Under the pieces are notes generated by a model, which did not search any database, was not told the DNA's origin, and saw only the letters and a program-made list of their open reading frames with translations. From contig JAUCBJ010001403.1 in the NCBI GenBank assembly GCA_032718475.1, forward strand, positions 1-63,675: a stretch of 63,675 bases of DNA, read 5' to 3'. Shown here piece by piece: positions 6,265-62,345 of the stretch; the stretch's first letter is position 1, and every line of letters starts with the position of its first letter. This DNA comes from Nemertoderma westbladi. Taxonomy: Eukaryota; Animalia; Xenacoelomorpha. The position numbers and the translations under genes are program-made.

Positions 6265-6629
6265 CTAGTCGAACAAACCGAATCCCATGTCATCGTCGCT
6301 CTCTTCCTCAGGCTCCGGCTCGGGTTTCTTCTCCTCGGCGGCAGCTCCGGTAGCCCCGGCTACGGGGGCCGCGGCTATAAAGGCCGACGGGTCCGCCAGG
6401 TAGGCGAGCATCGCTTCTGCTTCCGGGAAGGCGTAGTCGGTCTCGGCTGCGACGGCGAGGACGTTCTTAAAGGCGTTGGCGATGGAGTGGGGGGCGGAAG
6501 CGACGGTCGGGTAGCCGATCTCTAGGGAGACAGCCGCCACGTTGGCGACACCCGCCATAAACATGTTGCGGATGTCCGCGTCACTGATGTCGAGAATCAT
6601 AGGGCTGAATATAGAGCCCTGGTCGTAAA
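6265..6629 (-). CDS. RPLP0: 60S acidic ribosomal protein P0 (uL10), coding exon 5 (last)
   Basis: Acceptor ttctgtttgtttcAG at 6631-6630; phase 1 joins exon 4 to give IYDQGSIFSPMILDIS...GYPTVASAPHSIANAFKNVLAVA...EEESDDDMGFGLFD*, the canonical P-protein C-terminus; 365 nt. Confidence 0.96.
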
Positions 6630-9600: not shown

Positions 9601-12600
9601 AAACAAACAGAATGTCCAATGTTAGTGATGGAATATAGAGCCCTGGTCGTAAACTGAAACAAACAGAATGTCCAATGTTAGTGATGGAATATAGAGCCCT
9701 GGTCGTAAACTGAAACAAACAGAATGTCCAATGTTAGTGATGGAATATAGAGCCCTGGTCGTAAACTGAAACAAACAGAATGTCCAATGTTAGTGATGGA
9801 ATATATAGACCTGGTCGTAAACTGAAACAAACAGAATGTCCAATGTTAGTGATGGAATATAGAGCCCTGGTCGTAAACTGAAACAAACAGAATGTCCAAC
9901 GTTAGTGATGGAATATAGAGCCCTGGTCGTAAACTGAAACAAACAGAATGTCCAACGTTAGTGATGGAATATAGAGCCCTGGTCGTAAACTGAAACAAAC
10001 AGAATGTCCAACGTTAGTGATGGAATATAGAGCCCTGATCGTAAACTGAAACAAACAGAATGTCCAACGTTAGTGATGGAATATAGAGCCCTGGTCGTAA
10101 ACTGAAACAAACAGAATGTCCAACGTTAGTGATGGAATATAGAGCCCTGGTCGTAAACTGAAACAAACAGAATGTCCACTGTTAGTGATGGAATATAGAG
10201 CCCTGGTCGTAAACTGAAACAAACAGAATGTCCAACGTTAGTGATGGAATATAGAGCCCTGGTCGTAAACTGAAACAAACAGAATGTCCAACGTTAGTGA
10301 TGGAATATAGAGCCCTGGTCGTAAACTGAAACAAACAGAATGTCCACTGTTAGTGATGGAATATAGAGCCCTGGTCGTAAACTGAAACAAACAGAATGTC
10401 CAACGTTAGTGATGGAATACAAAGCCCTGGTCGTAAACTGAAACAAACAGAATGTCCAACGTTAGTGATGGAATATAGAGCCCTGGTCGTAAACTGAAAC
10501 AAACAGAATGTCCAACGTTAGTGATGGAATATAGAGCCCTGGTCGTAAACTGAAACAAACAGAATGTCCAATGTTAGTGATGGAATATAGAGCCCTGGTC
10601 GTAAACTGAAACAAACAGAATGTCCAACGTTAGTGATGGAATATAGAGCCCTGGTCGTAAACTGAAACAAACAGAATGTCCAATGTTAGTGATGGAATAT
10701 AGAGCCCTGATCGTAAACTGAAACAAACAGAATGTCCAATGTTAGTGATGGAATATAGAGCCCTGGTCGTAAACTGAAACAAACAGAATGTCCAATGTTA
10801 GTGATGGAATATAGAGCCCTGGTCGTAAACTGAAACAAACAGAATGTCCAATGTTAGTGATGGAATATAGAGCCCTGGTCGTAAACTGAAACAAACAGAA
10901 TGTCCAACGTTAGTGATGGAATATAGAGCCCTGGTCGTAAACTGAAACAAACAGAATGTCCAATGTTAGTGATGGAATATAGAGCCCTGGTCGTAAACTG
11001 AAACAAACAGAATGTCCAACGTTAGTGATGGAATATAGAGCCCTGGTCGTAAACTGAAACAAACAGAATGTCCAACGTTAGTGATGGAATATAGAGCCCT
11101 GGTCGTAAACTGAAACAAACAGAATGTCCAATGTTAGTGATGGAATATAGAGCCCTGGTCGTAAACTGAAACAAACAGAATGTCCAATGTTAGTGATGGA
11201 ATATAGAGCCCTGGTCGTAAACTGAAACAAACAGAATGTCCAATGTTAGTGATGGAATATAGAGCCCTGGTCGTAAACTGAAACAAACAGAATGTCCAAC
11301 GTTAGTGATGGAATATAGAGCCCTGGTCGTAAACTGAAACAAACAGAATGTCCAACGTTAGTGATGGAATATAGAGCCCTGGTCGTAAACTGAAACAAAC
11401 AGAATGTCCACTGTTAGTGATGGAATATAGAGCCCTGGTCGTAAACTGAAACAAACAGAATGTCCAACGTTAGTGATGGAATATAGAGCCCTGGTCGTAA
11501 ACTGAAACAAACAGAATGTCCAATGTTAGTGATGGAATATAGAGCCCTGGTCGTAAACTGAAACAAACAGAATGTCCAACGTTAGTGATGGAATATAGAG
11601 CCCTGGTCGTAAACTGAAACAAACAGAATGTCCAATGTTAGTGATGGAATATATAGACCTGGTCGTAAACTGAAACAAACAGAATGTCCAACGTTAGTGA
11701 TGGAATATAGAGCCCTGATCGTAAACTGAAACAAACAGAATGTCCAATGTTAGTGATGGAATATAGAGCCCTGGTCGTAAACTGAAACAAACAGAATGTC
11801 CACTGTTAGTGATGGAATATAGAGCCCTGGTCGTAAACTGAAACAAACAGAATGTCCAATGTTAGTGATGGAATATAGAGCCCTGGTCGTAAACTGAAAC
11901 AAACAGAATGTCCAATGTTAGTGATGGAATATAGAGCCCTGGTCGTAAACTGAAACAAACAGAATGTCCAACGTTAGTGATGGAATATAGAGCCCTGGTC
12001 GTAAACTGAAACAAACAGAATGTCCAATGTTAGTGATGGAATATAGAGCCCTGGTCGTAAACTGAAACAAACAGAATGTCCACTGTTAGTGATGGAATAT
12101 AGAGCCCTGGTCGTAAACTGAAACAAACAGAATGTCCAACGTTAGTGATGGAATATAGAGCCCTGGTCGTAAACTGAAACAAACAGAATGTCCAATGTTA
12201 GTGATGGAATATAGAGCCCTGGTCGTAAACTGAAACAAACAGAATGTCCAATGTTAGTGATGGAATATAGAGCCCTGGTCGTAAACTGAAACAAACAGAA
12301 TGTCCAATGTTAGTGATGGAATATAGAGCCCTGGTCGTAAACTGAAACAAACAGAATGTCCAACGTTAGTGATGGAATATAGAGCCCTGGTCGTAAACTG
12401 AAACAAACAGAATGTCCAACGTTAGTGATGGAATACAAAGCCCTGGTCGTAAACTGAAACAAACAGAATGTCCAATGTTAGTGATGGAATATAGAGCCCT
12501 GGTCGTAAACTGAAACAAACAGAATGTCCAACGTTAGTGATGGAATATAGAGCCCTGGTCGTAAACTGAAACAAACAGAATGTCCAATGTTAGTGATGGA

Positions 12601-15600
12601 ATATAGAGCCCTGGTCGTAAACTGAAACAAACAGAATGTCCAATGTTAGTGATGGAATATAGAGCCCTGGTCGTAAACTGAAACAAACAGAATGTCCAAT
12701 GTTAGTGATGGAATATAGAGCCCTGGTCGTAAACTGAAACAAACAGAATGTCCAATGTTAGTGATGGAATATAGAGCCCTGGTCGTAAACTGAAACAAAC
12801 AGAATGTCCAATGTTAGTGATGGAATATAGAGCCCTGGTCGTAAACTGAAACAAACAGAATGTCCAATGTTAGTGATGGAATATAGAGCCCTGGTCGTAA
12901 ACTGAAACAAACAGAATGTCCAATGTTAGTGATGGAATATAGAGCCCTGGTCGTAAACTGAAACAAACAGAATGTCCAACGTTAGTGATGGAATACAGAG
13001 CCCTGGTCGTAAACTGAAACAAACAGAATGTCCAATGTTAGTGATGGAATATAGAGCCCTGGTCGTAAACTGAAACAAACAGAATGTCCAACGTTAGTGA
13101 TGGAATATAGAGCCCTGGTCGTAAACTGAAACAAACAGAATGTCCAATGTTAGTGATGGAATATAGAGCCCTGGACGTAAACTGAAACAAACAGAATGTC
13201 CAATGTTAGTGATGGAATATAGAGCCCTGGTCGTAAACTGAAACAAACAGAATGTCCAATGTTAGTGATGGAATATAGAGCCCTGGTCGTAAACTGAAAC
13301 AAACAGAATGTCCAATGTTAGTGATGGAATATAGAGCCCTGGTCGTAAACTGAAACAAACAGAATGTCCAATGTTAGTGATGGAATATAGAGCCCTGGTC
13401 GTAAACTGAAACAAACAGAATGTCCAATGTTAGTGATGGAATATAGAGCCCTGGTCGTAAACTGAAACAAACAGAATGTCCAATGTTAGTGATGGAATAT
13501 AGAGCCCTGGTCGTAAACTGAAACAAACAGAATGTCCAACGTTAGTGATGGAATATAGAGCCCTGGACGTAAACTGAAACAAACAGAATGTCCAACGTTA
13601 GTGATGGAATATAGAGCCCTGGTCGTAAACTGAAACAAACAGAATGTCCAATGTTAGTGATGGAATATAGAGCCCTGGTCGTAAACTGAAACAAACAGAA
13701 TGTCCACTGTTAGTGATGGAATATAGAGCCCTGGTCGTAAACTGAAACAAACAGAATGTCCAATGTTAGTGATGGAATATAGAGCCCTGGTCGTAAACTG
13801 AAACAAACAGAATGTCCAACGTTAGTGATGGAATATAGAGCCCTGGACGTAAACTGAAACAAACAGAATGTCCAATGTTAGTGATGGAATATAGAGCCCT
13901 GGTCGTAAACTGAAACAAACAGAATGTCCAACGTTAGTGATGGAATATAGAGCCCTGGACGTAAACTGAAACAAACAGAATGTCCAACGTTAGTGATGGA
14001 ATATAGAGCCCTGGACGTAAACTGAAACAAACAGAATGTCCAATGTTAGTGATGGAATATAGAGCCCTGGTCGTAAACTGAAACAAACAGAATGTCCAAC
14101 GTTAGTGATGGAATATAGAGCCCTGGACGTAAACTGAAACAAACAGAATGTCCAATGTTAGTGATGGAATATAGAGCCCTGGTCGTAAACTGAAACAAAC
14201 AGAATGTCCAACGTTAGTGATGGAATATAGAGCCCTGGTCGTAAACTGAAACAAACAGAATGTCCAATGTTAGTGATGGAATATAGAGCCCTGGTCGTAA
14301 ACTGAAACAAACAGAATGTCCAATGTTAGTGATGGAATATAGAGCCCTGATCGTAAACTGAAACAAACAGAATGTCCAACGTTAGTGATGGAATATAGAG
14401 CCCTGGTCGTAAACTGAAACAAACAGAATGTCCAATGTTAGTGATGGAATATAGAGCCCTGGTCGTAAACTGAAACAAACAGAATGTCCAATGTTAGTGA
14501 TGGAATATAGAGCCCTGGTCGTAAACTGAAACAAACAGAATGTCCAATGTTAGTGATGGAATATAGAGCCCTGGTCGTAAACTGAAACAAACAGAATGTC
14601 CAATGTTAGTGATGGAATATAGAGCCCTGGTCGTAAACTGAAACAAACAGAATGTCCAATGTTAGTGATGGAATATAGAGCCCTGGTCGTAAACTGAAAC
14701 AAACAGAATGTCCAATGTTAGTGATGGAATATAGAGCCCTGGTCGTAAACTGAAACAAACAGAATGTCCAACGTTAGTGATGGAATATAGAGCCCTGGAC
14801 GTAAACTGAAACAAACAGAATGTCCAACGTTAGTGATGGAATATAGAGCCCTGGTCGTAAACTGAAACAAACAGAATGTCCAATGTTAGTGATGGAATAT
14901 AGAGCCCTGGTCGTAAACTGAAACAAACAGAATGTCCAACGTTAGTGATGGAATATAGAGCCCTGGACGTAAACTGAAACAAACAGAATGTCCAATGTTA
15001 GTGATGGAATATAGAGCCCTGGTCGTAAACTGAAACAAACAGAATGTCCAACGTTAGTGATGGAATATAGAGCCCTGGTCGTAAACTGAAACAAACAGAA
15101 TGTCCAATGTTAGTGATGGAATATAGAGCCCTGGTCGTAAACTGAAACAAACAGAATGTCCAATGTTAGTGATGGAATATAGAGCCCTGATCGTAAACTG
15201 AAACAAACAGAATGTCCAACGTTAGTGATGGAATATAGAGCCCTGGTCGTAAACTGAAACAAACAGAATGTCCAATGTTAGTGATGGAATATAGAGCCCT
15301 GGTCGTAAACTGAAACAAACAGAATGTCCAATGTTAGTGATGGAATATAGAGCCCTGGTCGTAAACTGAAACAAACAGAATGTCCAACGTTAGTGATGGA
15401 ATATAGAGCCCTGGTCGTAAACTGAAACAAACAGAATGTCCAATGTTAGTGATGGAATATAGAGCCCTGGTCGTAAACTGAAACAAACAGAATGTCCAAT
15501 GTTAGTGATGGAATATAGAGCCCTGGTCGTAAACTGAAACAAACAGAATGTCCAATGTTAGTGATGGAATATAGAGCCCTGGTCGTAAACTGAAACAAAC

Positions 15601-17197
15601 AGAATGTCCAACGTTAGTGATGGAATATAGAGCCCTGGTCGTAAACTGAAACAAACAGAATGTCCAATGTTAGTGATGGAATATAGAGCCCTGGTCGTAA
15701 ACTGAAACAAACAGAATGTCCAATGTTAGTGATGGAATATAGAGCCCTGGTCGTAAACTGAAACAAACAGAATGTCCAATGTTAGTGATGGAATATAGAG
15801 CCCTGGTCGTAAACTGAAACAAACAGAATGTCCAATGTTAGTGATGGAATATAGAGCCCTGGTCGTAAACTGAAACAAACAGAATGTCCAACGTTAGTGA
15901 TGGAATATAGAGCCCTGGTCGTAAACTGAAACAAACAGAATGTCCAATGTTAGTGATGGAATATAGAGCCCTGGTCGTAAACTGAAACAAACAGAATGTC
16001 CAATGTTAGTGATGGAATATAGAGCCCTGGTCGTAAACTGAAACAAACAGAATGTCCAATGTTAGTGATGGAATATAGAGCCCTGGTCGTAAACTGAAAC
16101 AAACAGAATGTCCAACGTTAGTGATGGAATATAGAGCCCTGGACGTAAACTGAAACAAACAGAATGTCCAATGTTAGTGATGGAATATAGAGCCCTGGTC
16201 GTAAACTGAAACAAACAGAATGTCCAACGTTAGTGATGGAATATAGAGCCCTGGTCGTAAACTGAAACAAACAGAATGTCCAATGTTAGTGATGGAATAT
16301 AGAGCCCTGGTCGTAAACTGAAACAAACAGAATGTCCAACGTTAGTGATGGAATATAGAGCCCTGGTCGTAAACTGAAACAAACAGAATGTCCAATGTTA
16401 GTGATGGAATATAGAGCCCTGGTCGTAAACTGAAACAAACAGAATGTCCAATGTTAGTGATGGAATATAGAGCCCTGATCGTAAACTGAAACAAACAGAA
16501 TGTCCAACGTTAGTGATGGAATATAGAGCCCTGGTCGTAAACTGAAACAAACAGAATGTCCAATGGTAGTGAGGGAATATAGAGCCCTGGTCGTAAACTG
16601 AAACAAACAGAATGTCCAATGTTAGTGATGGAATATAGAGCCCTGGTCGTAAACTGAAACAAACAGAATGTCCACTGTTAGTGATGGAATATAGAGCCCT
16701 GGTCGTAAACTGAAACAAACAGAATGTCCAATGTTAGTGATGGAATATAGAGCCCTGGTCGTAAACTGAAACAAACAGAATGTCCAATGTTAGTGATGGA
16801 ATATAGAGCCCTGATCGTAAACTGAAACAAACAGAATGTCCAACGTTAGTGATGGAATATAGAGCCCTGGTCGTAAACTGAAACAAACAGAATGTCCAAT
16901 GTTAGTGATGGAATATAGAGCCCTGGTCGTAAACTGAAACAAACAGAATGTCCAATGTTAGTGATGGAATATAGAGCCCTGGACGTAAACTGAAACAAAC
17001 AGAATGTCCAACGTTAGTGATGGAATATAGAGCCCTGGTCGTAAACTGAAACAAACAGAATGTCCAATGTTAGTGATGGAATATAGAGCCCTGGACGTAA
17101 ACTGAAACAAACAGAATGTCCAACGTTAGTGATGGAATATAGAGCCCTGGTCGTAAACTGAAACAAACAGAATGTCCAATGTTAGTGATGGAATATA
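6607..17197. repeat. 56-bp tandem array, 189 units, each containing the RPLP0 intron-4 branch point, 3' splice site and first 23 nt of exon 5
   Basis: GAATATA at 6607 and 17191 are 10584 = 189 x 56 apart. Sense (-) unit: CATCACTAAC(A/G)TTGGACATTCTGTTTGTTTCAG|TTTACGACCAGGGCTCTATATTC. Confidence 0.97.
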
Positions 17198-17386
17198 TAT
17201 TCTTCATATAATGAATAAAGAATATATTCTTCAACATTTACTTTGGAGATCCATTGAACTATAAATTGATATTGTTTTGGTTTCCTATCTCCCGGGTTAC
17301 ATATAATAAATTACATTGTTATGAACTGACTGGAAGTTATGAACTAAAAATCTTTGCCGAGGGAATGTAAATAAAAATCATCAACA

Positions 17387-17440
17387 TCAGAATTGCAGGA
17401 TTATTTCATAAAAAGTCAAAGTATCTTGATTTATCATCAC
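17387..17440 (-). ncRNA. SNORD96: Box C/D snoRNA, SNORD96-like (5.8S rRNA Gm75 guide), copy 1 (box C to box D)
   Basis: Minus strand GTGATGA...TTGA...TAATCCTGCAATT-CTGA closed by 10-bp stem AATCATCAAC/GTTGATGATT; guide pairs with 5.8S AAUUGCAGGA and D+5 selects the G, as in vertebrate SNORD96. Confidence 0.88.
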
Positions 17441-17624
17441 CAGTTGATGATTCTAATTAACTACTAATTACACGAAATGGGGCCTTCGCGCAGCACTGCA
17501 TAATTTTATGATATTTTATGTCCGGTGTAACCAATGGGAATGCACCATTAACATAATAAATAATATTGTAGTTGATTAACTGTTTAAAACACAATGGGAT
17601 TAATGGACAACAAAATTCCGTTAC

Positions 17625-17691
17625 TCAGATATTAAAACATAGACATTAAAATAATCATTTAGGTCATTCGACGAGACACAAATATCATCAT
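17625..17691 (-). ncRNA. Box C/D snoRNA family B (unassigned), copy 1
   Basis: Minus strand ATGATGA...ATGA (D') cctaa ATGATT (C')...CTATGTTTTAATAT-CTGA, closed by stem TCTGTTAT/GTAACGGA. Confidence 0.75.
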
Positions 17692-18240
17692 TATAACAGA
17701 GATATGAGCTTACAATGAAAACAACATATTGTAATTAGTCAAAATTTACTCTAAATATCTACCATATAACCAAAATTATGCGTATTATTGGGGTTTTAAA
17801 TTCAATGACAAATATTTTGAGTCCGTACCGGGACTGCCAATAAAGAATACCTTGCAGAGCAGTCGCCAAGGAAACTGACTATTATATAGACACCTAACTG
17901 ACTCTACAACACATAAGGGGGGAGGGGGCGGGGGGGGGGGGGGGGGGGGGGTAAACATTTTTATTCTATCGTGTGTCGAATTTAATGGAGAATTCAAATC
18001 TGCAAGAAGATTTCTCATATCTTTTCTCAAACTCAAGTTATTACCCAAAACATAAGAGCTAGTCTGACTTATGAAAAGCCTTCGAGCAGCACTATATTTT
18101 AAAATTGTACGGGGCCCTTTTCATAAAAAAAGGCTCTCACGGTACAGATATGAATAAAATATCTAAAATAGCGGGAAGATTTAAATTGTTTCTTAAACTT
18201 TAAACACCCATATCTCAGAATGACGTTTTTTCATGAAAAA

Positions 18241-18520
18241 GGCTATTTCTCCGCCAATTTTAATTGAAATGAGTTGAAATTTGGTACACTTGTTAAGAAT
18301 ACATTTCTCCATACTTCTTCTGAACAAATTTGGTTGGAAATGACCTGGCGCCTTTTTATATCAAAAAGGCCCAAAAAGCCGTTTATGGGGCCTTTTTGTT
18401 ATAAAAAGGCTCCAGAGCATTTGAGGCAAAATTTGTTCAGAAGAATTGGATACAGGGTTCTTCTGAACTTATATTCCAAATTTCGACAAATTTCAACAAA
18501 TATTGGTGGCGAAATAGCCC
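18241..18520. mobile_element. Palindromic MITE/foldback-like element inside the 1.75-kb unit (present in each full unit)
   Basis: Nested inverted arms: GGCTATTTCTCCGCCAAT / ATTGGTGGCGAAATAGCC, TTCTTCTGAACAAATTT / AAATTTGTTCAGAAGAA, AAAAAGGCCC / GGGCCTTTTT. Confidence 0.65.
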
Positions 18521-19138
18521 TTCGGCGCAAAAAGGCACTTTTGGCCATTACGGAGCCATTTTGGGGCCAATTTTAAAAATATTTGGCTTGGTTGTTTAGA
18601 AGTACAAAAAATAATTTTTACCCAATATTAGGGTCCCGAGACACAAAAATGTGAGGTTTAAATTTTGGGGTGCTACCCCCCCCCCTTAAGGGGAGTCATA
18701 AATATAATAAAATTGTTTCATAAATTGGCTCAGATAAATTTGGATTGTTGGGAACGAAAAGTTTCTTCAAAGTAAAAAAGAACTCAAAGCGAGCTGAGAT
18801 TATCATCATAGCCAAAACTCAATCAAATAATATTTACACAATAAAACTAAGAACTTCACAGCCATTTCAATGCATCTGTAAAATTGTATGTTGGTTTATC
18901 ATTTTTAAATTATATTAAATTTTAACATAACAACAACTTTATACCTCACAGAAACCAAAGTTCACTAATTATAGAATATTCTTCAACATTTACTTTGGAG
19001 ATCCATTGAACTATAAATTGATATTGTTTTGGTTTCCTATCTCCCGGGTTACATATAATAAATTACATTGTTATGAACTGACTGGAAGTTATGAACTAAA
19101 AATCTTAGCCGAGGGAATGTAAATAAAAATCATCAACA

Positions 19139-19192
19139 TCAGAATTGCAGGATTATTTCATAAAAAGTCAAAGTATCTTGATTTATCATCAC
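19139..19192 (-). ncRNA. SNORD96: SNORD96-like snoRNA, copy 2
   Basis: Same boxes, guide and stem as copy 1. Confidence 0.85.
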
Positions 19193-19376
19193 CAGTTGAT
19201 GATTCTAATTAACTACTAATTACACGAAATGGGGCCTTCGCGCAGCACTGCATAATTTTATGATATTTTATGTCCGGTGTAACCAATGGGAATGCACCAT
19301 TAACATAATAAATAATATTGTAGTTGATTAACTGTTTAAAACACAATGGGATTAATGGACAACAAAATTCCGTTAC

Positions 19377-19443
19377 TCAGATATTAAAACATAGACATTA
19401 AAATAATCATTTAGGTCATTCGACGAGACACAAATATCATCAT
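19377..19443 (-). ncRNA. C/D snoRNA family B, copy 2
   Basis: Same boxes and stem as copy 1. Confidence 0.72.
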
Positions 19444-20894
19444 TATAACAGAGATATGAGCTTACAATGAAAACAACATATTGTAATTAGTCAAAATTTA
19501 CTCTAAATATCTACCATATAACCAAAATTATGCGTATTATTGGGGTTTTAAATTCAATGACAAATATTTTGAGTCCGTACCGGGACTGCCAATAAAGAAT
19601 ACCTTGCAGAGCAGTCGCCAAGGAAACTGACTATTATATAGACACCTAACTGACTCTACAACACATAAGGGGGGAGGGGGGGCGGGGGGGGGGGGGGGGG
19701 GGGTAAACTTTTCTTATTCTATCGTGTGTCGAATTTAATGGAGAATTCAAATCTGCAAGAAGATTTCTCATATCTTTTCTCAAACTCAAGTTATTACCCA
19801 AAACATAAGAGCTAGTCTGATTTATGAAAAGCCTTCGAGCAGCACTATATTTTAAAATTGTACGGGGCCCTTTTCATAAAAAAAGGCTCTCACGGTACAG
19901 ATATGAATAAAATATCTAAAATAGCGGGAAGATTTAAATTGTTTCTTAAACTTTAAACACCCATATCTCAGAATGACGTTTTTTCATGAAAAAGGCTATT
20001 TCTCCGCCAATTTTAATTGAAATGAGTTGAAATTTGGTACACTTGTTAAGAATACATTTCTCCATACTTCTTCTGAACAAATTTGGTTGGAAATGACCTG
20101 GCGCCTTTTTATATCAAAAAGGCCCAAAAAGCCCTTTATGGGGCCTTTTTGTTATAAAAAGGCTCCAGAGCATTTGAGGCAAAATTTGTTCAGAAGAATT
20201 GGATACAGGGTTCTTCTGAACTTATATTCCAAATTTCGACAAATTTCAACAAATATTGGTGGCGAAATAGCCCTTCGGCGCAAAAAGGCACTTTTGGCCA
20301 TTACGGAGCCATTTTGGGGCCAATTTTAAAAATATTTGGCTTGGTTGTTTAGAAGTACAAAAAATAATTTTTACCCAATATTAGGGTCCCGAGACACAAA
20401 AATGTGAGGTTTAAATTTTGGGGTGCTACCCCCCCCCCCCCTTAAGGGGAGTCATAAATATAATAAAATTGTTTCATAAATTGGCTCAGATAAATTTGGA
20501 TTGTTGGGAACGAAAAGTTTCTTCAAAGTAAAAAAGAACTCAAAGCGAGCTGAGATTATCATCATAGCCAAAACTCAATCAAATAATATTTACACAATAA
20601 AACTAAGAACTTCACAGCCATTTCAATGCATCTGTAAAATTGTATGTTGGTTTATCATTTTTAAATTATATTAAATTTTAACATAACAACAACTTTATAC
20701 CTCACAGAAACCAAAGTTCACTAATTATAGAATATTCTTCAACATTTACTTTGGCGATCCATTGAACTATAAATTGATATTGTTTTGGTTTCCTATCTCC
20801 CGGGTTACATATAATAAATTACATTGTTATGAACTGACTGGAAGTTATGAACTAAAAATCTTAGCCGAGGGAATGTAAATAAAAATCATCAACA

Positions 20895-20948
20895 TCAGAA
20901 TTGCAGGATTATTTCATAAAAAATCAAAGTATCTTGATTTATCATCAC
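20895..20948 (-). ncRNA. SNORD96: SNORD96-like snoRNA, copy 3
   Basis: Same boxes, guide and stem. Confidence 0.85.
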
Positions 20949-21132
20949 CAGTTGATGATTCTAATTAACTACTAATTACACGAAATGGGGCCTTCGCGCA
21001 GCACTGCATAATTTTATGATATTTTATGTCCGGTGTAACCAATGGGAATGCACCATTAACATAATAAATAATATTGTAGTTGATTAACTGTTTAAAACAC
21101 AATGGGATTAATGGACAACAAAATTCCGTTAC

Positions 21133-21199
21133 TCAGATATTAAAACATAGACATTAAAATAATCATTTAGGTCATTCGACGAGACACAAATATCATCAT
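21133..21199 (-). ncRNA. C/D snoRNA family B, copy 3
   Basis: Same boxes and stem. Confidence 0.72.
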
Positions 21200-22658
21200 T
21201 ATAACAGAGATATGAGCTTACAATGAAAACAACATATTGTAATTAGTCAAAATTTACTCTAAATATCTACCATATAACCAAAATTATGCGTATTATTGGG
21301 GTTTTAAATTCAATGACAAATATTTTGAGTCCGTACCGGGACTGCCAATAAAGAATACCTTGCAGAGCAGTCGCCAAGGAAACTGACTATTATATAGACA
21401 CCTAACTGACTCTACAACACATAAGGGGGGAGGGGGCGGGGGGGGGTGGGGTGGGTAAATTTTTCTTATTCTATCGTGTGTCGAATTTAATGGAGAATTC
21501 AAATCTGCAAGAAGATTTCTCAAATATTTTCTCAAACTCAAGTTATTACCCAAAACATAAGAGCTAAAACATAAGAGCTAGTCTGATTCATGAAAAGCCT
21601 TCGAGCAGCACTATATTTTAAAATTGTACGGGACCCTTTTCATAAAAAAAAGGCTCTCACGGTACAGATATGAATAAAATAGCTAAAATAGCGGGAAGAT
21701 TTAAATTGTTTCTTAAACTTTAAACACCCATATCTAAGAATGACGTTTTTTCATGAAAAAGGCTATTTCTCCGCCAATTTTAATTGAAATGAGTTGAAAT
21801 TTGGTACACTTGTTAAGAATACATTTCTCCATACTTCTTCTGAACAAATTTGGTTGGAAATGACCTGGCGCCTTTTTATATCAAAAAGGCCCAAAAAGTC
21901 GTTTATGGGGCCTTTTTGTTATAAAAAGGCTCCAGAGCATTTGAGGCAAAATTTGTTCAGAAGAATTGGATACAGGGTTCTTCTGAACTTATATTCCAAA
22001 TTTCGACAAATTTCAACAAATATTGGTGGCGAAATAGCCCTTCGGCGCAAAAAGGCACTTTTGGCCATTACGGAGCCATTTTGGGGCCAATTTTAAAAAT
22101 AGTTGGCTTGGTTGTTTAGAAGTACAAAAAATAATTTTTACCCAATATTAGGGTCCCGAGACACAAAAATGTGAGGTTTAAATTTCGGAGTGCTACCCCC
22201 CCCCCTTAAGGGGAGTCATAAATATAATAAAATTGTTTCATAAATTGGCTCAGATAAATTTGGATTGTTGGGAACGAAAAGTTTCTTCAAAGTAAAAAAG
22301 AACTCAAAGCGAGCTGAGATTATCATCATAGCCAAAACTCAATCAAATAATATTTACACAATAAAACTAAGAACTTCACAGCCATTTCAATGCATCTGTA
22401 AAATTGTATGTTGGTTTATCATTTTTAAATTATATTAAATTTTAACATAACAACAACTTTATACCTCACAGAAACCAAAGTTCACTAATTATAGAATATT
22501 CTTCAACATTTACTTTGGAGATCCATTGAACTATAAATTGATATTGTTTTGGTTTCCTATCTCCCGGGTTACATATAATAAATTACATTGTTATGAACTG
22601 ACTGGAAGTTATGAACTAAAAATCTTAGCCGAGGGAATGTAAATAAAAATCATCAACA

Positions 22659-22712
22659 TCAGAATTGCAGGATTATTTCATAAAAAATCAAAGTATCTTG
22701 ATTTATCATCAC
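22659..22712 (-). ncRNA. SNORD96: SNORD96-like snoRNA, copy 4
   Basis: Same boxes, guide and stem. Confidence 0.85.
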
Positions 22713-22896
22713 CAGTTGATGATTCTAATTAACTACTAATTACACGAAATGGGGCCTTCGCGCAGCACTGCATAATTTTATGATATTTTATGTCCGGTGT
22801 AACCAATGGGAATGCACCATTAACATAATAAATAATATTGTAGTTGATTAACTGTTTAAAACACAATGGGATTAATGGACAACAAAATTCCGTTAC

Positions 22897-22963
22897 TCAG
22901 ATATTAAAACATAGACATTAAAATAATCATTTAGGTCATTCGACGAGACACAAATATCATCAT
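22897..22963 (-). ncRNA. C/D snoRNA family B, copy 4
   Basis: Same boxes and stem. Confidence 0.72.
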
Positions 22964-24429
22964 TATAACAGAGATATGAGCTTACAATGAAAACAACATA
23001 TATGGTAATTAGTCAAAATTTACTCTAAATATCTACCATATAACCAAAATTATGCGTATTATTGGGGTTTTAAATTCAATGACAAATATTTTGAGTCCGT
23101 ACCGGGACTGCCAATAAAGAATACCTTGCAGAGCAGTCGCCAAGGAAACTGACTATTATATAGACACCTAACTGACTCTACAACACATAAGGGGGGAGGG
23201 GGAGGGGGCGGGGGGGGGGGGGGGTGGGTAAATTTTTCTTATTCTATCGTGTGTCGAATTTAATGGAGAATTCAAATCTGCAAGAAGATTTCTCAAATAT
23301 TTTCTCAAACTCAAGTTATTACCCAAAACATAAGAGCTAAAACATAAGAGCTAGTCTGATTTATGGAAAGCCTTCGAGCAGCACTATATTTTAAAATTGT
23401 ACGGGACCCTTTTCATAAAAAAAAGGCTCTCACGGTACAGATATGAATAAAATAGCTAAAATAGCGGGAAGATTTAAATTGTTTCTTAAACTTTAAACAC
23501 CCATATCTAAGAATGACGTTTTTTCATGAAAAAGGCTATTTCTCCGCCAATTTTAATTGAAATGAGTTGAAATTTGGTACACTTGTTAAGAATACATTTC
23601 TCCATACTTCTTCTGAACAAATTTGGTTGGAAATGACCTGGCGCCGTTTTATATCAAAAAGGCCCAACAAGCCCTTTATGGGGCCTTTTTGTTATAAAAA
23701 GGCTCCAGAGCATTTGAGGCAAAATTTGTTCAGAAGAATTGGATACAGGGTTCTTCTGAACTTATATTCCAAATTTCGACAAATTTCAACAAATATTGGT
23801 GGCGAAATAGCCCTTCGGCGCAAAAAGGCACTTTTGGCCATTACGGAGCCATTTTGGGGCCAATTTTAAAAATATTTGGTTTGGTTGTTTAGAAGTACAA
23901 AAAATAATTTTTACCCAATATTAGGGTCCCGAGACACAAAAATGTGAGGTTTAAATTTTGGGGTGCTACCCCCCCCTTAAGGGGAGTCACAAATATAATA
24001 AAATTGTTTCAAAAATTGGCTCAGATAAATTTGGATTGTTGGGAACGAAAAGTTTCTTCAAAGTAAAAAAGAACTCAAAGCGAGCTGAGATTATCATCAT
24101 AGCCAAAACTCAATCAAATAATATTTACACAATAAAACTAAGAACTTCACAGCCATTTCAATGCATCTGTAAAATTGTATGTTGGTTTATCATTTTTAAA
24201 TTATATTAAATTTTAACATAACAACAACTTTATACCTCACAGAAACCAAAGTTCACTAATTATAGAATATTCTTCAACATTTACTTTGGCGATCCATTGA
24301 ACTATAAATTGATATTGTTTTGGTTTCCTATCTCCCGGGTTACATATAATAAATTACATTGTTATGAACTGACTGGAAGTTATGAACTAAAAATCTTTGC
24401 CGAGGGAATGTAAATAAAAATCATCAACA

Positions 24430-24483
24430 TCAGAATTGCAGGATTATTTCATAAAAAGTCAAAGTATCTTGATTTATCATCAC
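24430..24483 (-). ncRNA. SNORD96: SNORD96-like snoRNA, copy 5
   Basis: Same boxes, guide and stem. Confidence 0.85.
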
Positions 24484-24667
24484 CAGTTGATGATTCTAAT
24501 TAACTACTAATTACACGAAATGGGGCCTTCGCGCAGCACTGCATAATTTTATGATATTTTATGTCCGGTGTAACCAATGGGAATGCACCATTAACATAAT
24601 AAATAATATTGTAGTTGATTAACTGTTTAAAACACAATGGGATTAGTGGACAACAAAATTCCGTTAC

Positions 24668-24734
24668 TCAGATATTAAAACATAGACATTAAAATAATCA
24701 TTTAGGTCATTCGACGAGACAAAAATATCATCAT
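24668..24734 (-). ncRNA. C/D snoRNA family B, copy 5
   Basis: Same boxes; one substitution in the D'-side guide. Confidence 0.7.
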
Positions 24735-25916
24735 TATAACAGAGATATGAGCTTACAATGAAAACAACATATATGGTAATTAGTCAAAATTTACTCTAAA
24801 TATCTACCATATAACCAAAATTATGCGTATTATTGGGGTTTTAAATTCAATGACAAATATTTTACTATATTTTAAAATTGTACGGGGCCCTTTTCATAAA
24901 AAAAGGCTCTTACGGTACAGATATGAATAAAATATCTAAAATAGCGGGAAGATTTAAATGGTTTCTTAAACTTTAAACACCCAATATCTCAGAATGACGT
25001 TTTTTCATGAATAATGCTATTTCTCCGCCAATTTTAATTGAAATGAGTTGAAATTTGGTACACTTGTTAAGAATACATTTCTCCATACTTCTTCTGAACA
25101 AATTTGGTTGGAAATGACCTGGCGCCTTTTTATATCAAAAAGGCCCAAAAAGCCGTTTATGGGGCCTTTTTGTTATAAAAAGGCTCCAGAGCATTTGAGG
25201 CAAAATTTGTTCAGAAGAATTTGATACAGGGTTCTTCTGAACTTATATTCCAAATTTCGACAAATTTCAACAAATATTGGTGGCGAAATAGCCCTTCGGC
25301 GCAAAAAGGCACTTTTGGCCATTACGAAGCCATTTTGGGGCCAATTTTAAAAATATTTGGCTTGGTTGTTTAGAAGTACAAAAAATAATTTTTACCCAAT
25401 ATTAGGGTCCCGAGACACAAAAATGTGAGGTTTAAATTTTGGGGTGCTACCCCCCGCCCCCCCTTAAGGGGAGTCATAAATATAATAAAATTGTTTCATA
25501 AATTGGCTCAGATAAATTTGGATTGTTGGGAACGAAAAGTTTCTTCAAAGTAAAAAATAACTCAAAGCGAGCTGAGATTATCATCATAGCCAAAACTCAA
25601 TCAAATAATATTTACACAATAAAACTAAGAACTTCACAGCCATTTCAATGCATCTGTAAAATTGTATGTTGGTTTATCACTTTTAAATTATATTAAATTT
25701 TAACATAACAACAACTTTATACCTCACAGAAACCAAAGTTCACTAATTATAGAATATTCTTCAACATTTACTTTGGAGATCCATTGAACTATAAATTGAT
25801 ATTGTTTTGGTTTCCTATCTCCCGGGTTACATATAATAAATTACATTGTTATGAACTGACTGGAAGTTATGAACTAAAAATCTTTGCCGAGGGAATGTAA
25901 ATAAAAATCATCAACA

Positions 25917-25971
25917 TCAGAATTGCAGGATTATTTCATAAAAAAATCAAAGTATCTTGATTTATCATCAC
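25917..25971 (-). ncRNA. SNORD96: SNORD96-like snoRNA, copy 6
   Basis: Same boxes, guide and stem; one extra internal base. Confidence 0.85.
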
Positions 25972-26155
25972 CAGTTGATGATTCTAATTAACTACTAATT
26001 ACACGAAATGGGGCCTTCGCGCAGCACTGCATAATTTTATGATATTTTATGTCCGGTGTAACCAATGGGAATGCACCATTAACATAATAAATAATATTGT
26101 AGTTGATTAACTGTTTAAAACACAATGGGATTAATGGACAACAAAATTCCGTTAC

Positions 26156-26222
26156 TCAGATATTAAAACATAGACATTAAAATAATCATTTAGGTCATTC
26201 GACGAGACACAAATATCATCAT
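26156..26222 (-). ncRNA. C/D snoRNA family B, copy 6
   Basis: Same boxes and stem. Confidence 0.72.
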
Positions 26223-26741
26223 TATAACAGAGATATGAGCTTACAATGAAAACAACATATTGTAATTAGTCAAAATTTACTCTAAATATCTACCATATAA
26301 CCAAAATTATGCGTATTATTGGGGTTTTAAATTCAATGACAAATATTTTGAGTCCGTACCGGGACTGCCAATAAAGAATACCTTGCAGAGCAGTCGCCAA
26401 GGAAACTGACTATTATATAGACACCTAACTGACTCTACAACACATAAGGGGGGAAGGGGCGGGGGGGGGGGTAAATTTTTCTTATTCTATCGTGTGTCGA
26501 ATTTAATGGAGAATTCAAATCTGCAAGAAGATTTCTCATATCTTTTCTCAAACTCAAGTTATTACCCAAAACATAAGAGCTAGTCTGACTTATGAAAAGC
26601 CTTCGCGCAGCACTGCATAATTTTATGATATTTTATGTCCGGTGTAACCAATGGGAATGAACCATTAACATAATAAATAATATTGTAGTTGAATAACTGT
26701 TTAAAACACAATGGGATTAGTGGACAACAAAATTCCGTTAC

Positions 26742-26808
26742 TCAGATATTAAAACATAGACATTAAAATAATCATTTAGGTCATTCGACGAGACACAAAT
26801 ATCATCAT
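26742..26808 (-). ncRNA. C/D snoRNA family B, copy 7 (in rearranged sub-duplication)
   Basis: Same boxes and stem. Confidence 0.72.
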
Positions 26809-27213
26809 TATAACAGAGATATGAGCTTACAATGAAAACAACATATTGTAATTAGTCAAAATTTACTCTAAATATCTATCTACCATATAACCAAAATTAT
26901 GCGTATTATTGGGGTTTTAAATTCAATGACAAATATTTTACTATATTTTAAAATTGTACGGGGCCCTTTTCTTAAAAAAGGCTCTCACGGTACAGATATG
27001 AATAAAATATCTAAAATAGCGGGAAGATTTAAATTGTTTCTTAAACTTTAAACTCCCAATATCTCAGAATGACGTTTTTTCATGAAAAAGGCTATTTCTC
27101 CGCCAATTTTAATTGAAATGAGTTGAAATTTGGTACACTTGTTAAGAATACATTTCTCCATACTTCTTCTGAACAAATTTGGTTGGAAATGACCTGGCCA
27201 TAAAGCAGCAACA

Positions 27214-27266
27214 TCAGAATTGCAGGATTATTTCATTAAAGTCAAAGTATCTTGATTTATCATCAC
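27214..27266 (-). ncRNA. SNORD96: SNORD96-like snoRNA, copy 7 (outside the tandem repeat)
   Basis: Core nearly identical, but flanks differ and form a different stem AGCAAC/GTTGCT. Confidence 0.88.
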
Positions 27267-27929
27267 AGGTTGCTTGTAAGCGGATTTTTACCTGCTAAAT
27301 CGCGTTCGTCCTTTACTCAATTCGCAATTCGTAATACATAAATAAGAATGATATAATATCATGAATAATGATAATCTCATATTTAAGAGATAGCAACATG
27401 TGATCGACTAGTACAGTAACAAAAGTAATCCTCCAATAGAAACGTCCCAATCAATCCCTAATTAATGTGTGACGTCACCCAAGCATCACCCAACGAAACT
27501 AATTATACCTACTTATATTGCACGTGTGAGGCGTGTGGTAATTAATACTCGTTAGTCACCCATTGCTAGCCTATGGATGGCTGCCCCATTATTGCTAGCC
27601 TATGGATGGATGGCTGCATGACTGGTTTGTATAACACTTATTGCTGCTATTAATAGCCATTGACATTATGGACTGTTTGAGTCCAAAACGATAATTCACG
27701 GATTTTATGACTGGGCGTTCAGCTTATTCTATTTTGTAAGGGCCCTTCCTGGATTTAATTCATTATTCAGTATGACATGCTGCAAACGTTTCCGACACTA
27801 GCAATTACAAGATAAGAGTTGGACCAGCCTGTGTACAATTTAATTATTCGGTCAGTCGTTTTATAGTAAACTTACACTTAGAAATCGTCGTAATTCTAAA
27901 GATTACTATAGACAAAATAATTCAGTTAT

Positions 27930-27996
27930 TCAGATATTAAAACATAGACATTAAAATAATCATTTAGGTCATTCGACGAGACACAAATATCATCAT
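27930..27996 (-). ncRNA. C/D snoRNA family B, copy 8 (outside the tandem repeat)
   Basis: Identical core in unrelated flanks, with an alternative stem TTCTGTTATT/AATAACTGAA. Confidence 0.78.
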
Positions 27997-28125
27997 AATA
28001 ACAGAATGTAATTAATTAGCCTTGCTGATATGGAATGAACACCAAAACTATTATAATTATCTTAACCTTAACTACCGAATATGTAACTAATAATGATATA
28101 ATAGTGATATTGTCATTGAACTGAA

Positions 28126-29850
28126 CAGCTTACACTACGACTACACACCGTAACCGCCAGCTTACCCTACGACTACACACCGTAACCGCCAGCTTACACT
28201 ACGACTACACACCGTAACCGCCAGCTTACCCTACGACTACACACCGTAACCGCCAGCTTACCCTACGACTACACACCGTAACCGCCAGCTTACACTACGA
28301 CTACACACCGTAACCGCCAGCTTACCCTACGACTACACACCGTAACCGCCAGCTTACACTACGACTACACACCGTAACCGCCAGCTTACACTACGACTAC
28401 ACACCGTAACCGCCAGCTTACCCTACGACTACACACCGTAACCGCCAGCTTACACTACGACTACACACCGTAACCACCAGCTTACCCTACGACTACACAC
28501 CGTAACCGCCAGCTTACACTACGACTACACACCGTAACCGCCAGCTTACACTACGACTACACACCGTAACCACCAGCTTACCCTACGACTACACACCGTA
28601 ACCGCCAGCTTACACTACGACTACACACCGTAACCGCCAGCTTACACTACGACTACACACCGTAACCACCAGCTTACCCTACGACTACACACCGTAACCG
28701 CCAGCTTACACTACGACTACACACCGTAACCGCCAGCTTACACTACGACTACACACCGTAACCACCAGCTTACCCTACGAATACACACCGTAACCGCCAG
28801 CTTACACTACGACTACACACCGTAACCGCCAGCTTACCCTACGACTACACACCGTAACCGCCAGCTTACACTACGACTACACAACGTAACCGCCAGCTTA
28901 CACTACGACTACACACCGTAACCGCCAGCTTACACTACGACTACACACCGTAACCGCCAGCTTACACTACGACTACACACCGTAACCACCAGCTTACCCT
29001 ACGACTACACACCGTAACCGCCAGCTTACACTACGACTACACACCGTAACCGCCAGCTTACACTACGACTACACACCGTAACCACCAGCTTACCCTACGA
29101 CTACACACCGTAACCACCAGCTTACCCTACGACTACACACCGTAACCGCCAACTTACACTACGACTACACACCGTAACCGCCAGCTTACACTACGACTAC
29201 ACACCGTAACCACCAGCTTACCCTACGAATACACACCGTAACCGCCAGCTTACACTACGACTACACACCGTAACCGCCAGCTTACACTACGACTACACAC
29301 CGTAACCGCCAGCTTACCCTACGACTACACACCGTAACCGCCAGCTTACACTACGACTACACACCGTAACCGCCAGCTTACACTACGACTACACACCGTA
29401 ACCGCCAGCTTACACTACGACTACACACCGTAACCGCCAGCTTACACTACGACTACACACCGTAACCGCCAGCTTACACTACGACTACACACCGTAACCG
29501 CCAGCTTACACTACGACTACACACCGTAACCGCCAGCTTACACTACGACTACACACCGTAACCGCCAGCTTACACTACGACTACACACCGTAACCGCCAG
29601 CTTACACTACGACTACACACCGTAACCGCCAGCTTACACTACGACTACACACCGTAACCGCCAGCTTACACTACGACTACACACCGTAACCGCCAGCTTA
29701 CACTACGACTACACACCGTAACCGCCAGCTTACCCTACGACTACACACCGTAACCGCCAGCTTACACTACGACTACACACCGTAACCGCCAGCTTACACT
29801 ACGACTACACACCGTAACCGCCAGCTTACACTGCGACTACACACCGTAAC
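28126..29850. repeat. 32-bp minisatellite, about 54 copies (CAGCTTAC[A/C]CTACGACTACACACCGTAACC[G/A]C)
   Basis: Period read directly (CTACACACCG at 28141 and 28173). Confidence 0.96.
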
Positions 29851-30142
29851 TGCACTAACAACACTGCGATAAATAGCAGAGACAATGCGAGAGAAATAAA
29901 GCGAATAGACAGACTAAGTAGTTTGTATCTATTAATATTCTACTTCACACAAACAACCCAACATAATTCCTCTACAAACCTATTAATAATAGCCACAATA
30001 ATTCAATTAGACCTGTATAGGACACCTTTACTATACAGGTACCCGCTCCACGTCTGGCACGTCTTGGCTATTCCAGAATTATCACACCACGCGCGCTATG
30101 GTGGGAGTTAGGTAATGATATTTTCGTGTACACATAACAACA

Positions 30143-30196
30143 TCAGAATTGCAGGATTATTTCATTTAAAGTCAAATTATATTTACTTATCATCAC
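30143..30196 (-). ncRNA. SNORD96: SNORD96-like snoRNA, copy 8 (diverged paralog)
   Basis: Boxes C, D' and D and the TCCTGCAATT guide intact, 5' half diverged; short CAACA/TGTTG stem. Confidence 0.85.
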
Positions 30197-30403
30197 CAGT
30201 GTTGCTGCTGCACATAACCAAGTATCAATAAATCACCTTCAGTCACAAATAATACCCGTGAGTTTGTTGTTAGTTAAACTCAAGACAAGATGGTCTTAAT
30301 AATTAATTAATTAATTAATATAATTAGCGGACCTGACCCGAGATAATTGCGAAGGATATCAACCAGATATGGTATTCTGTTTGTTTATAATAGTTAAACT
30401 TAC

Positions 30404-30512
30404 TGTATTCGATTTCCAATCCGTAACTGAACGGCGACATTTTCAACATGTTTAGTAGAGTCGCCTCACTGGCGCCGACTTTAGTGCCAACGTGGATTAG
30501 ATGGACGTCGTT
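30404..30512 (-). CDS. RPLP0: 60S acidic ribosomal protein P0, coding exon 4 (absent from ORF track)
   Basis: ctgtttccAG|[36 protein letters not shown]+A|GTAAGT; 109 nt, phase 0 in, phase 1 out. Confidence 0.95.
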
Positions 30513-30535: not shown

Positions 30536-30569
30536 ATATTCGTACTGTAGCTAGTTAATCATACGTCAG
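30536..30569. repeat. 34-bp direct repeat, left copy, flanking the giant array
   Basis: ATATTCGTACTGTAGCTAGTTAATCATACGTCAG, identical to 60191-60224. Confidence 0.95.
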
Positions 30570-60789: not shown

Positions 60790-61024
60790 AATGATTTCAA
60801 TAGTTCCACGAGATATTTTCGTGGGAATAGCTAATGCCTGGAAGAACGAGGTCTTCTCAGGACCGAGGCCGCTGTTCTGTGCCGGTATGGTCACATCCAC
60901 CGGCGCTATAGCCCCGGCTCGGGCCGGCGCTTTGGTTCGATTCACGTTAATCAGGTCCCGAATGTGGCTGAGATCGTATTTGGTAAAGACCAGACCCACG
61001 TTGCCACGGAGATACGGGAGCAAT
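60790..61024 (-). CDS. RPLP0: 60S acidic ribosomal protein P0, coding exon 3
   Basis: cttcccttttcAG|[16 protein letters not shown]...[47 protein letters not shown]|GTGAGT; 235 nt. Confidence 0.96.
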
Positions 61025-61746
61025 CTGAAAAGGGAAGTAAAAACGACCCGACAAATGATATACTCATATCGATTTCTATTTGGCGTAAAAAAAATAATTT
61101 TCATTTTCACTACTGAACAGAAATCCTTCAAGCAGGGTTGCGGAGTTGACAAAATCATAGGATTCCGACTCCAGGGTAAAAAATGAATTAGACTCTGACT
61201 TCGACCAAAATTTTTCCAAAACCTAAAATTAAAAAATGAAACGTGCGTTTTTAATTTAAACTATCATTGTCAGCAAATACGTTATTTTCTTAATGAAAAA
61301 CGATTACTTTCATTTAAATAATGCTGATTTTTTTCGTCGGCGTCCTGTACATTTCTTAAGGACTCCGACTTCAACTAAAAACATGGACTGTAACTGCAGT
61401 ACACTGCCTTCAGCTATCCAGTATATATAGAGCATATAGAAACTAAGAACAAACAAATAAAATGTATTTTGGGATAAAAAAGAATGCAGTAGTTTTTGGT
61501 GCTGCGAGTAAAAAAGGAAAAATATTAAACTGACTAAAATCAATTAGCGAAACAACAATTATTGCGTGAAATAGACCTAAAAGTTGACATATAACGTAAA
61601 ACAATAATTGCATGGCAGTATCAGTATGATATATAGCCTAAATTTAATGGTGTTTGAGACCTACGTCTACTAATAATAGTGCAGTGCAGTAAAGACAGAG
61701 TGGTATACCATACGAATATAACAATAGGCCTATCAGTTATCCTTAC

Positions 61747-61922
61747 TTCTCCAGACTAGGGTTGTTCTCCATATGACCGCGAACTGCCTTCCTCATCATT
61801 GTGTTTTTACCCATAAGGACCTCTGCCTCACCCCGTAAAGCAATCCGGATGTTCTGCATCTGTTTCGAACGAACATTGTCTGCCCCAACAATGAAACATT
61901 TGGGATATTCGTCGAGAAGTCG
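61747..61922 (-). CDS. RPLP0: 60S acidic ribosomal protein P0, coding exon 2 (absent from ORF track)
   Basis: AG|[58 protein letters not shown]+AA|GTAAGG; 176 nt. Confidence 0.96.
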
Positions 61923-62288: not shown

Positions 62289-62345
62289 GACCATCTTGAT
62301 GAAGTAGTTGGATTTCCATGTTGCCTTGTCTACTCCCCTCACCAT
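62289..62345 (-). CDS. RPLP0: 60S acidic ribosomal protein P0, coding exon 1 (start codon; absent from ORF track)
   Basis: AAAG ATG, MVRGVDKATWKSNYFIKMV|GTAAGT; 57 nt. The five exons sum to 942 nt = 313 aa plus stop. Confidence 0.95.

Follow-up and report, generated by a model that had tools for sequence, protein, structure and literature searches.

A cluster of three box C/D snoRNA-like families, partly amplified as a tandem cassette, in one intron of the ribosomal-protein gene RPLP0 of Nemertoderma westbladi

In animals, mostly one small nucleolar RNA (snoRNA) is found per intron, and intronic clusters form a recognised minority (PMC11028025). Here we describe such a cluster in intron 4 of RPLP0 of Nemertoderma westbladi (Xenacoelomorpha), on the contig JAUCBJ010001403.1 of assembly GCA_032718475.1, which was analysed over its full length of 63,675 nt (the window). 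The intron contains 21 copies resembling box C/D snoRNAs; they fall into three families, which we call A, B and C, and single copies are named below by family and first position. Several described systems share part of this arrangement. In Drosophila, several guide RNAs, often tandem paralogues, likewise lie in one intron of ribosomal-protein or translation genes (PMC11028025, PMC3089462), but these clusters are of the H/ACA type in 19 of 19 Drosophila rows among the 30 of 356 cluster places covered from PMC11028025, whereas the RPLP0 cluster is of the C/D type; the C/D loci of Drosophila follow the rule of one per intron (PMC3089462). The same 30 places, taken from the supplement of PMC11028025, comprise 22 H/ACA clusters, six C/D clusters from worm and zebrafish and two of unknown type, and larger animal C/D clusters may be among the rest. 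The top-2 cluster of C. elegans, with three C/D snoRNAs, and the zebrafish clusters likewise have multiple C/D snoRNAs within a single animal intron (PMC11028025), but they hold two or three copies as compared with 21 copies of three families in the RPLP0 intron. More than one snoRNA in one intron is also described for mammals, where the outcome is a long non-coding RNA with snoRNA ends (sno-lncRNA) (PMC4234469). SNORD115 and SNORD116 are, like the copies in RPLP0, tandemly amplified C/D units (10.1101/2023.10.24.563766). According to that source they are orphans, with each intron of their non-coding host carrying a single snoRNA, whereas the RPLP0 copies are predicted guides for ribosomal RNA (rRNA) within one intron of a coding gene.

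A literature search outside subscription journals brought up no paper describing a multi-family C/D cluster in a ribosomal-protein intron of an invertebrate, or one of comparable size in any animal intron. Polycistronic and intronic snoRNA clusters of plants, reported from rice by Liang et al. 2002, are said to carry different C/D families in a row that are cut free; unlike these, the RPLP0 cluster has an animal host, longer spacers and a recent tandem amplification together with a miniature inverted-repeat transposable element (MITE)-like sequence. The locus can mostly be explained by known parts, an old small cluster and neutral tandem growth, and it is larger than first noted.

The host gene is intact on the minus strand of the window. 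Its five exons encode an open 313-aa uL10 protein with GT-AG borders at all joins, and the protein is 66–74% identical to each of 17 homologues compared, all of them uL10/P0 proteins. The reading frame continues from exon 4 directly into exon 5, so there is no hidden coding exon in intron 4. Both strands were scanned strictly for box C (RTGA[TG]GA) followed by box D (CTGA), leaving out the 56-bp and 29-bp satellites described further below. All 21 copies in intron 4 lie on the minus strand, that is, sense to RPLP0, and all of them (21/21) carry a perfect box C (RUGAUGA) and box D (CUGA). Eight copies belong to the SNORD96-like family A, eight to family B and five to family C, which resembles the snR71/SNORD29 clan. 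The original prediction had counted sixteen snoRNA genes, eight of A and eight of B; these were recovered at their positions and in their orientation, as was their division into 13 copies within the array (six A, seven B) and three outside it (27214, 27930 and 30143), but the count was too low, family C having been missed. A relaxed C/D scan of intron 4 gave no additional family. In holding at least two snoRNA genes in sense within one host intron, the locus resembles a polycistronic intronic cluster, the inner members of which would be released from a shared precursor without splicing between them. In the six distinct copies analysed, the terminal stems consist of 5–10 contiguous pairs. Within 3237 nt of non-redundant intron sequence, six stem-closed C/D candidates were found on the sense strand and none on the antisense strand, and none of 1000 dinucleotide shuffles contained more than two such candidates.

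On the transcript A, B, A and another B come first; the series B-A-C then occurs four times, interrupted by deletions, and once more before a last B-A, with gaps of 184–2146 nt between neighbours. The first A copy (30143) lies 205 nt downstream of the exon-4 donor, and the last one (17387) lies 228 nt upstream of the first acceptor of the 56-bp array and 10.7 kb upstream of the productive acceptor. Copies of families B and C have A copies on either side in every case and are never found at the ends of the cluster.

Six copies, namely three A, two B and one C, are the founders of the cluster, and the other 15 are recent copies. The conservation of the founders is confined to the snoRNA itself: in the three copies outside the array, the distal 40-nt flanks match those of the cassette at 5–19 of 40 positions, whereas the core of B27930 is identical to cassette B (67/67; flanks 5/40 and 19/40), that of A27214 matches cassette A at 52/54 positions, with a compensatory change of a U-A to a G-C stem pair, and that of A30143 at 48/54, with boxes and D guide unchanged and all changes confined to the stretch between box C and the D guide. 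These comparisons agree with the earlier argument that conservation of the outlying copies indicates function, and they speak for purifying selection, or gene conversion, acting on the paralogues of A and B at the least. The accompanying claim that the terminal stems had been rebuilt from different sequence was not borne out. In the five aligned A copies (of eight), 5/8 stem pairs are invariant and the outer pairs show one U-A to G-C change plus G-U changes, while the B stems differ at 2/10 positions per arm; as judged from these alignments, the A stems are repaired rather than rebuilt. The covariation of the A stem (0.237) was reached by 8/500 shuffles.

Families A and C can be related to known rRNA guides. 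Targets were sought in ribosomal DNA (rDNA) of other eukaryotes rather than in the rRNA of N. westbladi itself: 108 loci were fetched, 60 of them were rDNA by BLAST, two served as the main targets and four covered the site of family B. Family A forms an 11-bp Watson-Crick duplex with positions 69–79 of 5.8S rRNA directly at box D; in each of the two 5.8S sequences used, the base that pairs with G74 is the fifth counted from box D. This is a SNORD96-type D-box guide to the equivalent of 5.8S G75 in human numbering. By the strict score, 18/2000 shuffles of the D guide were equal or better. The guide is identical to that of the SNORD96 consensus and stands in the same register, which we regard as the independent support; family A differs from SNORD96 in measuring only 53–55 nt from box C to box D and in lacking the consensus D' guide. 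The Rfam model of SNORD96 (RF00055), to which a hit had been anticipated, matched all eight A copies, but formal membership was not reached, with 22.3–26.3 bits against a gathering threshold of 43 (E 0.26–3). The human host of SNORD96A is RACK1, and the host here is RPLP0. This difference, which had been considered noteworthy, represents ordinary snoRNA mobility, as host switching is common (PMC3511168) and mobility is also described in PMC6984369.

The five C copies were all matched by snR71 (RF00479, clan CL00051), likewise below the gathering threshold (42.4–43.2 bits against 60, E 2–4e-4), and as in family A the guide element keeps its register: the D' guide of family C corresponds to that of the snR71 consensus. 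It pairs with large-subunit (LSU) rRNA of locus L030 near position 3285 with two G-U pairs, a score reached by 6/300 and 9/200 shuffles, and an additional 10-bp pairing lies 20–30 nt upstream of the guide site on the LSU. Family C therefore has a D' guide to the LSU adenosine of snR71/U29; U29 and snR71 share clan CL00051 and a common site (PMC3511168). Judging from the predicted duplexes, the likely partners are the SNORD96 site of 5.8S for family A and the snR71/U29 site of the LSU for family C. Family B matched no Rfam family (best E 1.0). It can form nine Watson-Crick pairs, a mismatch and two further pairs at a conserved LSU site in 4/4 covering loci (97/2000 shuffles), and in 1/4 loci a second pairing of 12/13 pairs at a site 55 nt upstream, and we treat this possible LSU pairing as a lead to a target and not as a result. 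Several observations count against these assignments and the stem analysis. No Rfam match at the gathering level was obtained in the whole window, so that none of the three families attains formal membership; the rDNA loci were fetched using the very 5.8S motif that family A matches; with a permissive score, the D guides of A (37/200 shuffles) and B (30/200) were not significant; and a control stem slid by +3 reached a covariation of 0.217, nearly equal to that of the true A stem.

The recent copies belong to a tandem cassette whose six units start at 17227, 18979, 20735, 22499, 24270 and 25757, are about 98% identical and carry deletions at 24863 and 26599–26940. Each unit contains a MITE-like element of about 770 bp with G-rich and C-rich inverted ends, TA at both sides and an internal palindrome of 280 nt. 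Across the units, 36 columns are variable, 3/201 in the cores, 12/890 in the spacers and 21/610 in the MITE. Cores and spacers are equally variable (p = 0.75), hence there is no signal of selection on the 15 recent copies, and the high copy number is no evidence of function. The deletions end in MITE sequence, which suggests unequal crossing-over, and expansion most likely proceeded by MITE-assisted unequal crossing-over in a gene that has three other large intronic arrays; introns 3 and 4 together contain tandem arrays of 29 bp (989 copies), 32 bp (54 copies), 56 bp (189 copies) and the 1.75-kb cassette. Altogether, we consider it very probable that the copies represent genuine snoRNA genes, the extra ones being passive.

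Contigs from four other sequencing runs (X1–X4), the depth of which is not a copy number, bear on whether the array exists outside this assembly. The C-A cassette contig has a depth of 140.6 in X2, compared with 25.7 for unique intron and 22 for exon 5, and of 58.3 in X3, compared with 12.8 and 14.8, X2 and X3 coming from one sample. MITE contigs reach depths in the thousands in X1–X3, as compared with 9–26 for unique intron sequence, which indicates a very high genomic copy number of the element. In X1, which may hold a single copy, the cassette depth of 26.7 is 2.9 times that of unique intron (9.15) but 0.9 times that of exon 5 (28.4), in agreement with one to three copies. Most simply read, these depths mean that one further sample has several cassettes and that samples differ in this respect. 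X4 shows depths of 10^4 to 2.5x10^5 confined to exon 5 and the 3' untranslated region and ending at the acceptor. Although it was labelled DNA by guess, this pattern suggests an RNA run, in which case the host would be expressed and spliced. The sole intronic X4 contig other than MITE (395 nt, depth 21) matches B24668 including its private change; it continues unspliced for 334 nt upstream and stops about 6 nt before the end of box D, although a contig cannot show an RNA end. X4 contigs also contain a deletion junction of the cassette. The A and C copies and the intronic portion of the 56-bp unit had no X4 contig, which we do not take as evidence.

That the array is an artefact of assembly or amplification, or that the snoRNAs have promoters of their own and the intron is irrelevant, seems very unlikely to us. 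The X1 depth would fit a single cassette, and bases 6–55 of the window form a head-to-head copy of what is presumably a library amplification adapter, which points to a low-input library that had been amplified and to the end of a contig. However, the copies carry shared and private changes (the 36 variable columns), X4 again shows one of the private variants and one deletion junction, the depth in X2 and X3 is raised four- to sixfold, all copies (21/21) are sense to the host, and the six founders remain even if there is only one cassette.

For the release of the inner copies, we tentatively favour a scheme in which six old conserved genes and 15 likely passive copies are transcribed together with RPLP0 and the inner snoRNAs are freed by internal cuts and then trimmed by exonucleases. 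Because every copy lies far from the productive acceptor, assembly of the small nucleolar ribonucleoproteins (snoRNPs) would be independent of splicing and would take place on the terminal stems of 5–10 bp; snoRNAs far from an acceptor are described as needing extended stems for splicing-independent processing (PMC4150776). An endonuclease would cut in the spacers, which measure 184–1057 nt and in which U-rich stretches and the MITE hairpin are candidate sites, and exonuclease trimming would follow the internal cuts. Endonucleolytic release of snoRNAs is known in animals from XendoU (PMC10557570). Family A might then guide 2'-O-methylation of 5.8S at the SNORD96 site (G74 in the fetched sequences) and family C that of the snR71/U29 adenosine of the LSU. 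Since B and C always lie between A copies, the action of exonucleases would not suffice to release them if every copy assembles, and with the end A copies assembled, debranching and trimming alone would yield a 13-kb sno-lncRNA, as in mammals. The original prediction of a polycistronic intron needing cuts or internal splicing holds to the extent that inner copies require more than trimming from the ends if all of them assemble, but it overlooked a route by partial snoRNP occupancy. Against internal cuts it must be said that neither a conserved spacer hairpin nor a conserved cut signal was seen, folding better than that of shuffles being confined, among nine spacer regions, to the MITE (z −13.6) and, to a weak degree, the A-C spacer (z −2.6), and that mammalian introns with two snoRNAs are reported to give a sno-lncRNA and not two cut products (PMC4234469, PMC11028025). 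In addition, acceptor-like sites after the snoRNAs are slightly more frequent than background, which favours a role of splicing. In the six founders they are located 20–51 nt past box D and score on average higher than background (p = 0.04; for donors p = 0.10), and they would be expected if a minor RPLP0 isoform included short non-coding exons between the snoRNAs, so that each resided in its own intron as in UHG or GAS5 and the by-product was degraded by nonsense-mediated decay (NMD). Over five intervals, acceptor-donor pairs summed to 22.9–25.0 compared with a shuffle mean of 15.6 (p = 0.06–0.13), the C-B interval with the MITE skipped gave p = 0.02–0.04, and candidate exons could be placed at 29863–29830, 27905–27876 and 19655–19466. 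Such an isoform would conform to the animal rule of one snoRNA per intron (PMC11028025), and human snoRNA hosts are reported often to yield NMD-sensitive variants (PMC4233243). We hold hidden splicing to be rather unlikely, though a serious rival: the splice matrices were crude frequency tables and the windows were picked after inspection, the B-A interval scored near zero and the A-C acceptor is weak, leaving candidate sites in 3/5 intervals, the intronic X4 contig passes the candidate donor situated 22 nt upstream of B without being spliced there, and among the joints listed (15 of 103) none fits a candidate exon.

Alternatively, cuts may be dispensable altogether, if within each excised intron a snoRNP forms on a single copy or a small number of copies and exonucleases trim to the outermost of these, leaving one snoRNA or a sno-lncRNA of variable length. 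This would require only the known path of debranching and exonucleases, and snoRNPs of either class are described to block trimming and so to give sno-lncRNAs (PMC4234469). Assembly may indeed be inefficient, all copies being far from the productive acceptor (PMC4150776), and the X4 contig with B and 334 nt of upstream sequence resembles a 5'-extended intermediate, with the reservation that contigs cannot prove RNA ends. With 21 copies, however, most introns would finish as long sno-lncRNAs, and the strict conservation of the inner B paralogues (67/67) suggests that a product is made from them; we thus regard this explanation as unlikely. A more far-reaching form of the cutting scheme, namely that this lineage processes C/D snoRNAs in the manner of plants and yeast, with an endonuclease cutting a three-family polycistron out of a 24-kb ribosomal-protein intron independently of splicing, appears rather doubtful at present. 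If it were true, the cluster would be free to vary in copy number between individuals and would represent a dosage-variable cassette for rRNA methylation, while the host still has to select the last of 189 identical acceptors.

The position of B and C, exclusively inside the cluster and nevertheless conserved there, makes the locus a natural test of how inner C/D snoRNAs are released, be it by cuts, hidden exons or partial occupancy, and copy-specific changes make such a test easy to read. The number of 21 copies itself matters less, because it gives the impression of neutral growth by tandem duplication in a gene prone to repeats. The coordinates of the copies and of the surrounding features are compiled in Table 1.

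Table 1 Features of the RPLP0 locus in the window; snoRNA copies are given from box C to box D in transcript order.
Feature	Position	Strand	Basis
RPLP0 coding exons	62289-62345, 61747-61922, 60790-61024, 30404-30512, 6265-6629	-	conceptual translation
RPLP0 exon 4, donor side of host intron	30404..30512	-	GT-AG joins and translation
RPLP0 intron 4, 23,774 nt, host of the snoRNA cluster	6630..30403	-	flanking exons; uL10/P0 homologues
Coding portion of RPLP0 exon 5, with the productive acceptor at 6630	6265..6629	-	translation; X4 depth ends at acceptor
A founder copy 1	30143..30196	-	C/D scan, SNORD96 model
32-bp satellite, 54 copies, between A30143 and B27930	28126..29850	-	tandem-repeat analysis
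B founder outside array	27930..27996	-	C/D scan; core comparison
A founder copy 2	27214..27266	-	C/D scan; core and stem comparison
Tandem cassette of ~1.75 kb, transcript order MITE-B-A-C	17224..27198	.	self-BLAST, unit alignment
B in partial cassette	26742..26808	-	C/D scan
B cassette copy	26156..26222	-	C/D scan
A cassette copy	25917..25971	-	SNORD96 model, C/D scan
C cassette copy	25508..25587	-	Rfam snosnR71, 43.2 bits, E 2.4e-4, gathering 60
B cassette copy, private change at 24722	24668..24734	-	C/D scan; variant recurs in X4 contig
A cassette copy	24430..24483	-	SNORD96 model, C/D scan
C cassette copy	24021..24100	-	snR71 model, C/D scan
B cassette copy	22897..22963	-	C/D scan
A cassette copy	22659..22712	-	SNORD96 model, C/D scan
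C cassette copy	22250..22329	-	snR71 model, C/D scan
B cassette copy	21133..21199	-	C/D scan
A cassette copy	20895..20948	-	SNORD96 model, C/D scan
C cassette copy	20486..20565	-	snR71 model, C/D scan
B cassette copy	19377..19443	-	C/D scan
A cassette copy	19139..19192	-	SNORD96 model, C/D scan
C cassette copy	18730..18809	-	snR71 model, C/D scan
MITE-like element, one per unit (first copy)	17916..18686	.	inverted ends, fold, genome copy depth
B cassette copy	17625..17691	-	C/D scan
A, last copy on transcript	17387..17440	-	C/D scan
56-bp acceptor array, 189 copies	6607..17197	-	tandem-repeat and sequence analysis

Some further matches were obtained in the searches. One strict-scan match at 61733 overlaps RPLP0 exon 2, and a single perfect C/D pair with a 5-bp stem lies outside RPLP0 at 2009–2093 on the minus strand; an rRNA target for it was sought and none was found. 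A weak SNORD108-like match was rejected as it has no boxes, a SNORD43-like match at 18844 was rejected for want of proper boxes, and Rfam microRNA matches at 20006–25281 (MIR8562 and others), far below gathering, were rejected as the palindrome of the MITE. Extra guides sought in the spacers and the other introns gave only 11–12-nt matches, near chance level. The A-C spacer contains a long hairpin (20646–20800, minus strand, and its copies) that spans the unit boundary. A second, weak hairpin and an ACA come after it, and this may be an H/ACA RNA; a clear H box was not found in this candidate, nor was an Rfam match. Outside RPLP0, the window also contains an intronless TMEM145-like gene of 485 aa (2825–4282, plus strand) with 32–37% identity to animal homologues; the homologues of this gene and of RPLP0 come from animals but are distant.

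Two satellites of intron 4 have units with splice-site-like motifs. The 56-bp unit combines a branch-point-like motif, a pyrimidine tract, an AG and 23 nt of exon 5, and the use of any upstream acceptor of the array leads to a stop 10 codons later. Its depth in X1–X3 is 28–48 times that of exon 5, so the array exists outside this assembly too. It seems to have been born between two microhomologies of 7 nt, one of them intronic and the other within exon 5. Despite the stop that follows upstream acceptors, X4, the run that resembles RNA, has abundant RPLP0 mRNA, and the individual behind X4 may or may not carry the array. In the 32-bp satellite, 53 units have a donor-like GTAAGC on the sense strand; it starts just past a pyrimidine-rich acceptor-like site at 29864, and the region 28126–29863 looks as if a donor had been amplified like the acceptor. 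The 29-bp unit of intron 3 forms a 30-kb array at 30539–60224 with a direct repeat of about 32 bp on either side, and 55 nt separate the end of the array from the exon-4 acceptor.

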